From Anaeromyxobacteraceae bacterium (GTDB lineage Bacteria > Myxococcota > Myxococcia > Myxococcales > Anaeromyxobacteraceae), in the NCBI GenBank assembly GCA_047602405.1, contig JASGHJ010000002.1, positions 416,001 to 480,000 of the forward strand: a stretch of 64,000 bases of DNA, given 5' to 3'. Both the position numbers and the translations under genes were made by a program. This document shows positions 28,272 to 31,046 of this stretch, one piece after another. The notes under the pieces are model-generated. The model had not been told where the DNA came from. It ran no database searches and was given only the letters and a program-made list of their open reading frames with translations. Positions within the stretch are counted from its first letter, which is position 1. Each line of letters opens with the position of its first letter.

Positions 28272-31046
28272 TCAGGGCTTCGCGTAGATGGCGAACGAGA
28301 AGCGCACCCCGTTCCAGCAGTTCTCGTAGGGCCAGCCCGTGCGGTCGCCGCCCATGGCGGTCACCAGCAGCTTCCCGAGGCGCCCGTCCGGCGTCTCGAA
28401 GAAGAACACGCTCTGCACGCCGGGGACCCACTCGGCGACGGCCTTCTGGCCGCTCGCGATCCAGCCGTTCGTGGCGCCGGTCATCGCGTCGACGATCGTC
28501 CGGCGGTTGGCCCCGCTGTAGTAGGCGTCGCCGTAGCCCGGCGCGGGCATCGCCCGCTGGAAGAAGCCCAGGTACGGCGTGCAGCTCGGGTTGAGGAGGT
28601 AGAGGTCGGGGAGCGCGGGTGCGGGCACTCCCGAGCGGTAGAGGTCGAGGAGCGTCTGCGGGGTGCCGTACCAGCCCGACTCCGTGTACCAGGTCCCGCC
28701 ACGGAATTCGGACTGCGAGTAGTCGAGGTCCAGGAACCGGACCCACCACTCGGGCGTGCCCGTCCAGTCGAAGTCGGCGGTGAGTGCCAGCTCCCCCGCC
28801 TTGTACGGCGTGAAGTCGGGGAACTCGGAGAGGGACTTCACCGTGTAGAGCTTGTCGGCGGTCTCGATGACGAGCCGGAGCGCGGCGTTGAACGCGAAGG
28901 TGGTCTTGTTGTCGTAGCCGTGGGCGTCCTCGAAGTAGTTGGCCACGCGGGTGAGGGTGGCCACCTGGGTGTTCCCGTTGAAGACCCAGACGTTGCTGAT
29001 CGTGCTCGTCGGCGACCAGGCGCTGACGTAGAGGCGGGTGACGGTCGCGCCGGAGGTCTCGAGGATCATGTTCTCGACGACCGCCGGCTTCGGCGCGTAC
29101 GCGTAGGAGACGCGGATCGGCCGCTCGGCGGTGGCCGGCGTGCTCGTCCCCGCGAGCTTGCGCGTGCTCGTCACCCGGACCTTCTCGGTGCCGTTGCCGA
29201 CGAGCGGCCCGGGTACCTCGCCGGAGTAGAAGTACGGGCCGCGCCCGTCCTGGGCGAGCAGCGTGGTCGTGCCGTCTGCCGCGACGAACGCGACGGCCGC
29301 GATGCCGTCGTAGTCGGACGCGCAGGTCACCACGTGGGCCTCGCTGCCGGACGAGGTCCCCCAGGCCGTGTAGATGGACGGGGTGGCCTCGTGGTTCGCC
29401 CGCGGGGCCCGGAGGCCGATCCGCGAGCCCGGGTGGAGCCGCAGCGCGAGGATCTGCGCGAAGTCGAGCGTCGCCGGGTCGAGGTGACCGTTGAGCGCGA
29501 GCGTGAGCTCGTCGAACTGCCAGCGCCAGGAGCCGTCGTCGAGGAGCTCGCCCTCGTCGGAGAGCCGGCCGGACAGCGGGACGGTGCGCGAGACGCCGTC
29601 GTCGCCGACGTGGTCCACCGCGTAGTGGTCCCCGTCCTGGCGGAACTTCATGGTCCAGGCGAGGGCCTCGCCGAGGGTGACCGCGGGGGAGGTGGCCGAG
29701 TCGTTGGCGGCCACCCGGGCGTGGATGAGGTTGCCCTCGATCCCCTCGGGGCCGGTGCCGACGTCGGCGAGGATGTCGGCGCTCGTGGAGACGATCCGGG
29801 CGAGGTACTCGCCCGCGTCGCCTACCGAGGTCCACTTGCCGTCCTCGAGGCGCATCACGTCGGCCCGCTTCTGGGCGAGGCCGAGGGCGACGGGGGCGCG
29901 GGACTCGAGCGCGCGCAGCTCCCAGTCGGTGAGGTAGAGCTTGCGGTCGGAGGTGACCGAGTCGATCACCCAGGAGACGCCCGCATCCGGCGGGAAGGCG
30001 GCGCCCGGGAGGAGGTTCGCGACCGACAGGTCCGGCGGCTCGAAGGTGGCGACGTCGGCGCCGCCGACGCGGAGCGAGAGCGTCGGGATGACGTTGCTCG
30101 CCGGCGCGGTGCCCCGGTTGTAGACCTTCACGAGCAGCTTCATCGCGGCCGCCTCGGTCGGGTTCGTGCTCACCGCCCGGCTCCAGTTCGACTCGTCGAT
30201 GACGCTGCCGCCCGACGCGTGCGAGGTGGTGGTGGTGTCGGTGTTCGTGACCTTGACCGACGCGGTGACCTCGCCCGAGAAGCCGAGGTCCTTGCCCGAG
30301 AGGCTCGCGCCGACCTTCACCTCCAGGCCGACCTCCTCGGCGAGCGAGTGGGACTGCTCGACCTCCCGGCTCCAGTTCGACTCCCGCGAGAGGGAGCCGC
30401 CGTCGGTGTACTGGATGTCACCGTTGAGGGTGATCGCGTAGCCGGTGAGCTCGACCTGGATGTCGGGGTAGGCCGGCACGAGCGGGTGGGTGCCCGGCTC
30501 GCGCACCGCGACGTCCATGTTGACGCCCGAGACCTCCTGCCCGTCGGAGTAGGCGTCCTGATCGGTCGACCACTGCAGCGGGTCGGTGTGGAACCCGGCC
30601 GCCTTCGCCACGAACCGGCCGGCCTCGACGTCGTAGTCGTAGCCGAAGACCTCGAGGTAGTCGGGCACCCCGTCGCCGTCGCTGTCGGCCACCGAGGCGC
30701 TGGCGGGATTGTTCGCGTTGCCGGCGAGCGCCGGGCCGGGGAGGGCGCCCGCCTGGCCCTTCGTGACGACCCACAGCCAGGCGTCGCCGAGCACCTCGAC
30801 GCCGTCGTTGACCCCGTCGCCGTCGGTGTCGGCCTTCTGCCAGTCGGTGCCGAGCACCGGCTGGTACCGCTTCTCGACCTCGTCGGGGAGGCCGTCACCG
30901 TCGGTGTCGGCCGGGTTCGCGGCCGCGATGTCCGCGGCGAGCTCGGCCTGGGTGGGCGGAGCCTGCGGGGTGGACTTCTTCTCGGAGCTGGAACAGGCGG
31001 CCGTCGCGAGCGTGAACGCGATGGCGACCAACCAGGTGCGGTACAT
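28272..31046 (-). CDS. Lipoprotein homologue of the anthrax protective antigen/binary toxin B pore-forming component
   Basis: Lipobox TAAC; DxDGDG Ca-binding repeats; WSTDQDAYSD.EV.G, HPLVPAYP, Ser/Thr-rich hairpin, YNRGTAPASNVIPT, VTLGEAL, collinear with PA domains 1', 2 and 3. Confidence 0.8.
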   Translation of the reverse strand: MYRTWLVAIAFTLATAACSSSEKKSTPQAPPTQAELAADIAAANPADTDGDGLPDEVEKRYQPVLGTDWQKADTDGDGVNDGVEVLGDAWLWVVTKGQAGALPGPALAGNANNPASASVADSDGDGVPDYLEVFGYDYDVEAGRFVAKAAGFHTDPLQWSTDQDAYSDGQEVSGVNMDVAVREPGTHPLVPAYPDIQVELTGYAITLNGDIQYTDGGSLSRESNWSREVEQSHSLAEEVGLEVKVGASLSGKDLGFSGEVTASVKVTNTDTTTTSHASGGSVIDESNWSRAVSTNPTEAAAMKLLVKVYNRGTAPASNVIPTLSLRVGGADVATFEPPDLSVANLLPGAAFPPDAGVSWVIDSVTSDRKLYLTDWELRALESRAPVALGLAQKRADVMRLEDGKWTSVGDAGEYLARIVSTSADILADVGTGPEGIEGNLIHARVAANDSATSPAVTLGEALAWTMKFRQDGDHYAVDHVGDDGVSRTVPLSGRLSDEGELLDDGSWRWQFDELTLALNGHLDPATLDFAQILALRLHPGSRIGLRAPRANHEATPSIYTAWGTSSGSEAHVVTCASDYDGIAAVAFVAADGTTTLLAQDGRGPYFYSGEVPGPLVGNGTEKVRVTSTRKLAGTSTPATAERPIRVSYAYAPKPAVVENMILETSGATVTRLYVSAWSPTSTISNVWVFNGNTQVATLTRVANYFEDAHGYDNKTTFAFNAALRLVIETADKLYTVKSLSEFPDFTPYKAGELALTADFDWTGTPEWWVRFLDLDYSQSEFRGGTWYTESGWYGTPQTLLDLYRSGVPAPALPDLYLLNPSCTPYLGFFQRAMPAPGYGDAYYSGANRRTIVDAMTGATNGWIASGQKAVAEWVPGVQSVFFFETPDGRLGKLLVTAMGGDRTGWPYENCWNGVRFSFAIYAKP

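Follow-up and report, generated by a model that had tools for sequence, protein, structure and literature searches.

A predicted lipid-anchored homologue of the anthrax PA pore-forming core encoded by an Anaeromyxobacteraceae bacterium

The stretch of DNA analysed here (64 kb, hereafter the window) carries a gene for a protein of 924 residues, P0001, that resembles the PA63 part of the anthrax toxin component PA (Table 1). Its frame has a GC3 of 0.98 against a GC2 of 0.51, and is thus the coding frame. A terminator-like hairpin (four overlapping sites, compared to 0.9 in shuffled sequences) lies between the PA63-like gene and the upstream gene nrfA, which suggests that the former may be its own transcription unit; no sigma-70 promoter match was found for it, and no paralogue of its product in the same genome. 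Cytochrome genes are numerous in the window, and beta-propeller surface lipoproteins adjoin the PA63-like gene both here and in genome G079.

Table 1. Features of the PA63-like gene and its surroundings (positions in the window; residues of P0001).
Feature	Position	Strand	Residues	Basis
PA63-like lipoprotein gene (P0001)	28272..31046	-	924 aa	ORF coordinates exact
Shine-Dalgarno-like GGAGG	31053..31057	-		sequence; 6 nt 5′ of ATG
Terminator-like hairpin past nrfA	31206..31237	-		14 pairs, 13 G-C, T-rich tail; consensus match only
Predicted lipoprotein signal, lipobox Cys18	30993..31046	-	1-18	pattern match
N-terminal extension, helix and two bacterial TSP3 DxDGDG repeats	30708..30950	-	33-113	TSP3_bac, E 4.9e-9
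Domain 1′ equivalent, dual-Ca region	30465..30707	-	114-194	Binary_toxB (PF03495) at 121-190; aligns from PA 174
Domain 2 equivalent, pore-forming	29763..30464	-	~195-428 (boundary approximate)	Binary_toxB_2; profile alignment
Amphipathic membrane-insertion hairpin	30249..30335	-	238-266	strongest alternating 12-mer in P0001
Phi-clamp-equivalent loop, no aromatic residue	29940..29963	-	362-369	profile and sequence alignments
Domain 3 equivalent	29397..29762	-	~429-550	profile alignment to PA 595; Binary_toxB_3, E 0.079
Two tandem Ig-like beta-sandwich domains	28812..29390	-	~553-745	model pLDDT 89.9
HmuY-fold terminal domain	28275..28805	-	~748-924	VIA-align, top six all HmuY-type

The motifs quoted in the initial annotation are all present in P0001, and the order of PA domains 1′, 2 and 3 that it had proposed is recovered by the family profile, which aligns residues ~114-550 with PA 174-595 (E 2.5e-48); direct comparison to PA by phmmer gave E 2.6e-23 over residues 115-470. 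The proposed relation to the Pfam Binary_toxB profiles also holds for Binary_toxB and Binary_toxB_2, which match above cut-off (E 2.2e-11 and 1.6e-6, respectively), with Binary_toxB_3 remaining below it. P0001 has the features by which the PA-like family is recognised, namely a domain 1′ Ca region, here completely retained, followed by domains 2 and 3, and a long stem with an amphipathic membrane-insertion hairpin. The predicted monomer model is confident (pLDDT 85.8) and matches PA, CdtB, Ib and Vpb4 in fold (Foldseek, E 5e-24); the query-normalised TM-score is low (0.29-0.36) and the rmsd across the whole chain is high, the Atlas whole-protein model is poor (pTM 0.42), and a two-copy complex prediction of residues 114-552 scored 0.01, which weighs neither way. 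Judged by sequence comparison, P0001 is a true Bacterial_Exotoxin_B homologue, the homology lying far past chance and extending beyond the Ca-binding repeats.

The stem retains what a channel would require. Both strands of its hairpin alternate more strongly than shuffled sequences do (p 0.002 and 0.001, strand limits set by eye), giving one polar and one lipid-facing side, and across 84 relatives the alternate columns are mostly 74-95% hydrophobic. Stem length is 102-107 in 75 of these relatives and the hairpin pattern is conserved across phyla; model pLDDT is low at residues 235-258 and 262-268. The net charge of the stem is -7 in P0001, compared to a family median of -5 and -4 in PA. Under an assumed register, K244/E259 and E238/K265 could form charge pairs, which are unconserved, position 244 being Gly in 65/84 relatives. 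The loop corresponding to the phi-clamp is about two residues shorter than that of PA and contains no Phe, where B components of binary toxins carry one with an Asp two residues before it. The absence of this Phe, first noticed by eye in the single protein, extends to all 85 close relatives, and in the wider set of 178 core-bearing proteins some aromatic residue is found in 19, Phe in 10 of those.

The lipid anchor proposed in the initial annotation is likewise predicted here, from the lipobox pattern match and from its conservation in 73/85 close and 128/178 wider core-bearing homologues, compared to 6% in shuffled N-termini. The N-terminal extension, with helices at 33-42, 55-65 and 81-94 in the predicted model, occupies the place of PA20 but is not PA14, for which, as had been remarked, P0001 has no Pfam match at E<=0.1; PA14 does match the relatives P0222, P0234 and P0237. 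Inspection of 11 N-termini by eye revealed no basic cleavage site that is conserved, and nothing evident takes over the role of PA20 as a safety catch. Three DxDGDG motifs had been described as preceding the PA-like part, and three there are (at 47, 73 and 121), the last of them being the quoted domain 1′ motif itself.

The C-terminus, described at first as an unrelated region of roughly 400 residues, is indeed not PA-like; it begins at ~553 and measures 372 residues, in which two Ig-like domains and a HmuY fold can be recognised. The best Foldseek matches of the Ig-like region are tandem Ig/FnIII domains (E 8.6e-6; VIA Z ~7-8), a common arrangement. The terminal domain shares its fold with the HmuY haemophores PinO, Tfo, HmuY, BfrB and BfrC (Z 11.6-9.5, rmsd 3.2-3.6 Å over 130-141 residues) at 7-14% identity, and differs from them in being terminal on a pore core and apparently in lacking conserved His/Met ligands: it contains no His, its three Met are all unconserved, and a conservation scan found no conserved His/Met save one Leu/Met core column. 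Pfam HmuY matches the relative P0024 below cut-off (E 2e-5), and an Atlas search with this domain returned unnamed clusters together with sub-threshold HmuY structure matches. The domain likely binds the target; sought in longer proteins, it gave only three matches, all family members, which is weak evidence. The tail diverges fast: against the syntenic congener G026, identities are 79% in the core, 65% in the stem region and 48-53% in the tail (66% over the whole gene), compared to 90-99% for four neighbour genes. The dN/dS values, ~0.3 for the core, ~1 for the tail and 0.05-0.22 for the neighbours, come from this single pair at GC3 0.98 and are probably inflated.

The gene is an orphan. The initial annotation had seen no A component in the window, and the same is now found for the A-domain families PF03496 (VIP2), PF07737 (ATLF) and PF03497 (EF) throughout the host genome (G000) and two related ones (G026 and G079), all 98-99% complete, control plasmids being positive in this three-family search. 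In 26 homologue neighbourhoods, whose survey the annotation had proposed, none of the 183 neighbour ORFs stands out as a recurrent partner, and what recurs is limited to duplicates, synteny between kin and generic regulators. No immunity gene was found among these ORFs, called at 90 aa and above. A 76-aa ORF at 27177-27407 was considered as an immunity gene and rejected, since it has no signal peptide by eye and 75/76 of its residues are identical in G026 while the PA63-like gene is 66% identical. A Kelch lipoprotein was likewise rejected as an obligate partner, since it is common only to the syntenic G026.

Full-length copies are rare and patchy, occurring in 3/92 genomes of the host's taxonomic family, and strong matches in 4/401 genomes of the phylum Myxococcota; the largest family of the host's order (185 genomes), presumably Myxococcaceae, gave one weak partial match. 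Such a distribution lends little support to predation as the main role, one of the uses suggested at first; defence against grazers, also suggested there, is a possible role. Named homologues come from Planctomycetota, Holophagaceae, Eisenbacteria, Dehalococcoidia and Bacteroidota. The close-clade profile matched 0/401 sampled Chloroflexota genomes, so occurrence in monoderms rests on one Dehalococcoidia protein labelled by NCBI as MAG-derived. Plasmid matches (217 records) are all from Bacillota, with best identities <60% and 22-28% in the best 40 of the 217, and include no close member; all 40 loci of a contig scan matched residues 1-193 only, that is the DxDGDG pattern, and none was counted as family. 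In the wider family the tail is swapped for ricin-B, PQQ/LVIVD/BNR propellers, LamG, Lcl_C or Vps62 domains. Five relatives (P0219, P0227, P0236, P0239 and P0249, the last at cut-off) match a T9SS sorting tail, and in these the core begins ~50-80 residues from the N-terminus. The spacing between anchor and core ranges from 9-10 residues (P0145, P0183) to >1000 (P0130, P0131, P0159), the long spacers consisting partly of Ig-like repeats.

Compared to PA, CdtB, Ib and C2II (PF03495/PF17475/PF17476), P0001 has the same 1′-2-3 domain order, Ca region, stem hairpin and fold at ~25-27% identity, whereas it has a lipobox, a different tail and a Gram-negative host, and is without the PA14 prodomain, the D-x-F clamp and a known A component. 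In a tree that contained no verified Vpb4 sequence, a long branch (0.70, support 0.95) splits its clade from four Phe-clamp references. Vpb4 (Vip4) of Bacillus thuringiensis, a single-component insecticidal pore, belongs to the same family and, as described, similarly has no Phe clamp, an orphan gene and variable C-terminal binding domains (PMC13462110). Vpb4 differs in its cleaved 20-kDa prodomain, solubility and neutral lumen (PMC13462110); P0001 has a lipobox and TSP3 repeats, and its stem, at a net charge of -7, may differ from that lumen. Among solved relatives Vpb4 scores lowest (E 1.6e-38 and 2e-35, compared to 2.5e-48 for PA). In general architecture, P0001 resembles the BSAPs of Bacteroidales, reported as surface lipoproteins with a lipidated Cys, a short linker, a conserved pore domain and variable C-terminal receptor-binding domains (PMC12853789). 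The BSAP pore domain is MACPF (PMC12853789), for which P0001 has no Pfam match; its own core is PA-like, so that the likeness is one of analogy without homology. The CDCL toxins of Bacteroidota are likewise described as distant Gram-negative kin of a Gram-positive anti-eukaryote pore toxin, and they kill bacteria; these have the CDC fold, two components, protease activation and in some cases an immunity lipoprotein (PMC11169675), whereas no partner was found for P0001.

We cautiously favour, as the somewhat more probable reading, that P0001 is a single-component pore-former with a PA63 core, tethered to the surface or to vesicles in a BSAP-like architecture. The stand-alone lipid-anchored beta-pore-former of the initial annotation gains support from the conserved fold, hairpin and lipobox, together with the orphan state of the gene and the absence of known A families. 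By this mechanism, the protein would be exported and lipidated at Cys18, as the lipobox implies, and displayed on the surface or on vesicles, the outward direction being indicated by the T9SS-tailed and Dehalococcoidia relatives. Its Ig-Ig-HmuY-fold tail would bind a receptor on another cell, consistent with its position, fast divergence and domain swapping, and protomers would then form a ring through domains 1′-2-3, as expected from homology. The hairpins at 238-266 would build a beta-barrel in the membrane of the other cell, and the channel, its clamp Phe being absent, would leak ions instead of threading an enzyme, as inferred from Vpb4. Because the anchor is located on the cap side, the barrel should face away from the membrane of the producer as long as the anchor stays uncleaved. 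The Vpb4Aa2 pore is reported to be 155 Å tall with a membrane belt of 36 Å (PMC13462110), and at such a height a 10-residue tether cannot reach back to the producer's membrane. By analogy with BSAPs, other bacteria may be somewhat more likely targets than protists.

It seems unlikely, though worth considering, that the ring inserts into a neighbouring cell, or merely binds it, in order to anchor or feed and not to lyse. The long Ig-like stretches that separate the core from the anchor in certain members, the beta-propeller lipoproteins encoded next to the gene here and in G079, and the lack of a detected immunity gene or prodomain would suit such an adhesin, as would NCBIfam matches to the adhesion proteins CglD and MtsD, which however reach 32 bits against a cut-off of 400 and span the DxDGDG repeats only; moreover, the hairpin keeps both its polar and its lipid face, and an open barrel with no clamp would leak. 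We consider it quite unlikely that P0001 is the B part of a translocase for cargo outside the known A families and encoded elsewhere. BECb is reported to translocate with a Ser clamp (PMC13462110), so that loss of the Phe does not exclude cargo transport, the Ca region of domain 1′ is fully retained, the stem is net negative as in PA, and the A-domain search covered just three families. On the other hand, the clamp Phe is missing, there is neither a recurrent neighbour nor a member of the known A families, and, by PA geometry, the anchor and TSP3 extension would occupy the cap, to which cargo docks.

The periplasm has a width comparable to a pore height of 155 Å. This scale (height from PMC13462110) could suggest a channel in the producer's own envelope, either a conduit across the periplasm or an uptake pore to which the HmuY-fold domain would deliver haem or nutrients, since some HmuY proteins are reported to bind porphyrin without iron ligands (PMC12106395) and cytochrome genes abound in the window. 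We regard this, which corresponds to the non-toxic channel of the initial annotation, as very unlikely, given the anchor geometry and the T9SS-tailed and Dehalococcoidia members; in addition, the HmuY-fold domain is devoid of His and conserved ligands, lectins and propellers replace it elsewhere, presence is rare and divergence fast, and an unsystematic look recognised no TonB-dependent receptor among the neighbours. Its rarity might finally suggest a degenerate Ca-binding surface protein with a non-working pore core, which is highly improbable with an intact frame, a core dN/dS of ~0.3, and hairpin pattern and stem length conserved across phyla.

The homology itself is not new, as databases already name such proteins "binary toxin-like calcium binding domain-containing protein"; searches of the open-access literature turned up no account of their architecture, spread or likely mechanism, and the family is broad in environmental bacteria and apparently unstudied. 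Work on the PA family has dealt almost exclusively with AB-toxin translocases of Gram-positive bacteria and with the Vpb4 insecticidal pores, and the 2026 Vpb4 study surveyed Gram-positive genera only and could not settle whether the family arose from a translocase or from a lytic pore (PMC13462110). A broad lipoprotein and T9SS branch with neither prodomain nor clamp makes this question testable, and also raises the question of how a pore stays shut without PA20. As a tentative and rather doubtful possibility, P0001 may be the first protein to be described from a large PA branch, mostly lipid-anchored and devoid of prodomain and clamp, that is spread over Myxococcota, Planctomycetota, Acidobacteriota, Chloroflexota and Bacteroidota, whose members would be contact-dependent antibacterial pores tethered to the producer's surface by short tethers or 1000-residue Ig-like stalks and carrying swappable receptor tails, while the Bacillota AB translocases would be a derived side branch of narrow range in which PA14 and the phi-clamp were acquired. 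If this were true, it would answer the question of the ancestor. The lipoprotein and T9SS branch may also represent, after the MACPF BSAPs and the CDCLs, a third case of an anti-animal pore fold acting between microbes.

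The 924-aa predicted lipoprotein P0001 belongs to the PA-like fold family, and the observation is real. All motifs quoted in the initial annotation were found in it, the third of its three DxDGDG motifs being the domain-1′ motif. Pfam matches to Binary_toxB (E 2.2e-11) and Binary_toxB_2 (E 1.6e-6) are over the cut-off, that to Binary_toxB_3 is weak (E 0.079), TSP3_bac is also matched, and the PA14 prodomain is absent from the Pfam matches, as had been claimed. P0001 alone matches PA at E 2.6e-23, and a profile built from 84 members of the family matches PA 174-595 (domains 1′, 2 and 3) at E 2.5e-48, followed in order by C2II, Ib, CdtB and Vpb4. 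Its AlphaFold2 model (pLDDT 85.8, pTM 0.69) has PA, CdtB, Ib and Vpb4Da2 among the matches listed (E 5e-24 to 6e-20), with TM up to 0.71 by target, just 0.29-0.36 by query, and high whole-chain rmsd. From the Pfam, profile and model matches, the likeness to PA therefore extends beyond the calcium-binding repeats to the fold.

Residues 238-266 hold the protein's strongest alternating hydrophobic pattern (shuffle p 0.002 and 0.001), conserved across 84 relatives; the segment has low confidence in the monomer model, as expected of a membrane-insertion loop such as that of PA. The stem is 102-107 residues long in 75 of 84 family members (95 in PA), and its net charge is -7 in P0001, against a family median of -5 and -4 in PA. 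The clamp Phe is absent from the clamp loop of all 85 close relatives (one has Tyr), and the loop of P0001 is about two residues shorter than that of PA. In the wider set an aromatic occurs there in 19 of 178 proteins, 10 of them Phe, with D-x-F spacing, by eye, in P0086 only.

A lipobox pattern is present in 66 of 87 first matches by a first rule and, by a stricter one, in 73/85 close and 128/178 wider core-bearing proteins, compared with 6% of shuffled N-termini. Cys-to-core distance ranges from 9-10 residues (P0145, P0183) to over 1000, partly Ig-like repeats, and the predicted anchor of P0001 lies at the domain-1′ end. Since the Vpb4Aa2 pore is 155 Å high with a membrane belt of 36 Å (PMC13462110), a short tether cannot keep the cap at the membrane that the barrel enters; by this analogy the barrel would enter a second membrane, or else the anchor must be cut.

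Modelled alone, the tail reaches pLDDT 89.9, and structure comparison identifies two Ig-like domains (553-745) and a HmuY fold (748-924), the best six of 48,161 chains against the latter all being HmuY-type (Z 11.6-9.5, rmsd 3.2-3.6 Å). Among relatives surveyed in two sets (37 and 32 proteins), this tail is replaced by ricin-B, PQQ, LVIVD or BNR propellers, LamG, Lcl_C, Vps62 or FGE-like domains; a T9SS sorting tail is present in several of them. The HmuY-fold domain is a mobile module, because at locus L047 (9233-10342, genome G034) it follows Cys-rich repeats with no pore core attached. Compared with the copy in the syntenic congener G026, identity is 90-99% for four neighbours, 79% for the core, 65% for the stem region and 48-53% for the tail; dN/dS is about 0.3, 0.6 and 1 for core, stem region and tail and 0.05-0.22 for those neighbours, of which the contrast alone is meaningful, because this is one pair at very high GC3. 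The N-terminus of P0001 is 82% identical to P0003, its nearest named homologue (labelled Anaeromyxobacter), vs 44% to homologue P0002, while P0002 is the nearer of the two in the stem (74%, against 65% for P0003) and in the terminal domain (59% against 47%), a mosaic that hints at recombination between alleles.

We consider it somewhat probable that P0001 is a single-component pore-former, which would be exported as a lipoprotein to the cell surface or vesicles, bind another cell through its tail, ring up and insert an unclamped barrel. Vpb4 (PMC13462110), BSAPs (PMC12853789) and CDCLs (PMC11169675) offer precedents, the pore probably working most like that of Vpb4 and the layout appearing most BSAP-like; Vpb4 membership is not claimed. 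Against this stand the failure to find an immunity gene among neighbour ORFs of at least 90 aa or an obvious safety catch, a lumen not clearly neutral (the net charge of -7 leaves the neutral lumen of Vpb4 unsupported here), and BECb, which translocates with a Ser clamp (PMC13462110). A membrane grapple or adhesin is the foremost alternative, though unlikely.

A translocase of unknown cargo, for which BECb speaks, is slightly less likely still: PF03496, PF07737 and PF03497 gave strong matches in control plasmids and none in G000, G026 or the related genome G079. P0001 fails as a binary-toxin B component on PA14, clamp and A partner. Around 23 metagenome loci (all but three short ones of 26), the window, G026 and G079, 183 neighbour ORFs of at least 90 aa held no recurrent partner beyond duplicates, kin synteny and generic kinases or sigma-54 regulators. 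The stand-alone, lipid-anchored pore-former initially proposed has the domains, hairpin, lipobox pattern and orphan status in its favour. Among 92 Anaeromyxobacteraceae genomes, 3 carry the gene at full length and one more has a tail-only match. A predatory role is doubtful, because strong matches occur in 4 of 401 genomes of the phylum (plus one weak partial match) and homologues are spread over unrelated phyla. A channel in the producer's own envelope, or a haem channel, is improbable; the HmuY-fold domain has no His, and a conservation scan gave no conserved His/Met bar one Leu/Met column.

A profile search returned 921 representatives at E<=1e-30, many repeat-only, and 178 of 253 proteins examined span three quarters (75%) or more of the core, with source names including Anaeromyxobacter, Planctomycetota, Holophagaceae, Eisenbacteria, Dehalococcoidia, Bacteroidota and Bacillus. 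In a FastTree of 183 cores (434 columns), a branch of 0.70 (support 0.95) parts four Phe-clamp references from 179 others; the order of events is not readable from it, because the root is arbitrary and verified Vpb4 is absent from the set. WP_065705818.1 on B. thuringiensis plasmid NZ_CP126476.1 (L092, 482-2351) is binary-B-like with a clamp loop lacking Phe, joins the environmental set loosely on a long branch, and has no room for PA14, since its core begins about 73 residues past the start. P0222 (named Bacillus), P0234 and P0237, which carry PA14, and P0224, a 3194-aa cohesin/dockerin fusion, outscore PA against the core profile and are possible intermediates. A title-level search of the open literature, with subscription papers and supplements outside its scope, found no paper on a PA-family lipoprotein or Gram-negative members, and the genera listed in a 2026 family survey are all Gram-positive (PMC13462110).

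Coordinates of P0001 and surrounding features
Feature	Position	Strand	Remark
P0001 ORF	28272-31046	-	intact, 924 aa
1240-aa predicted lipoprotein, Ig-like region and Kelch propellers	23331-27053	-	same strand, downstream of P0001 gene
76-aa ORF, His/Cys pattern and CxxC	27177-27407	-	75/76 residues identical in G026
DUF326 Cys-rich four-helix protein	27738-28139	-	adjoins P0001 gene downstream
nrfA, small cytochrome c gene (nrfH-like), nap genes, two-component pair upstream	31276-41052		
PEGA-domain protein and 939-aa possible lipoprotein	44288-48248	-	

That P0001 is a relic is scarcely credible. Its single-copy gene has GGAGG 6 nt 5′ of the start, resembles its surroundings in GC content and codon pattern, and is separated by a terminator-like hairpin from nrfA, whose cluster, for nitrate-to-ammonium respiration, is apparently unrelated. 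The 939-aa protein is without Pfam match and the 76-aa ORF without NCBIfam match. The DUF326 protein, presumably copper-storage-like, is mostly absent from G026, where a 3′ remnant alone is kept. The Kelch lipoprotein is 90% identical in G026 and has no DNA-level match over its length in other listed genus members. In G079 the P0001-type gene comes after a Kelch protein and a BNR-repeat lipoprotein, neighbours by which such genes may sit in surface-lipoprotein islands.
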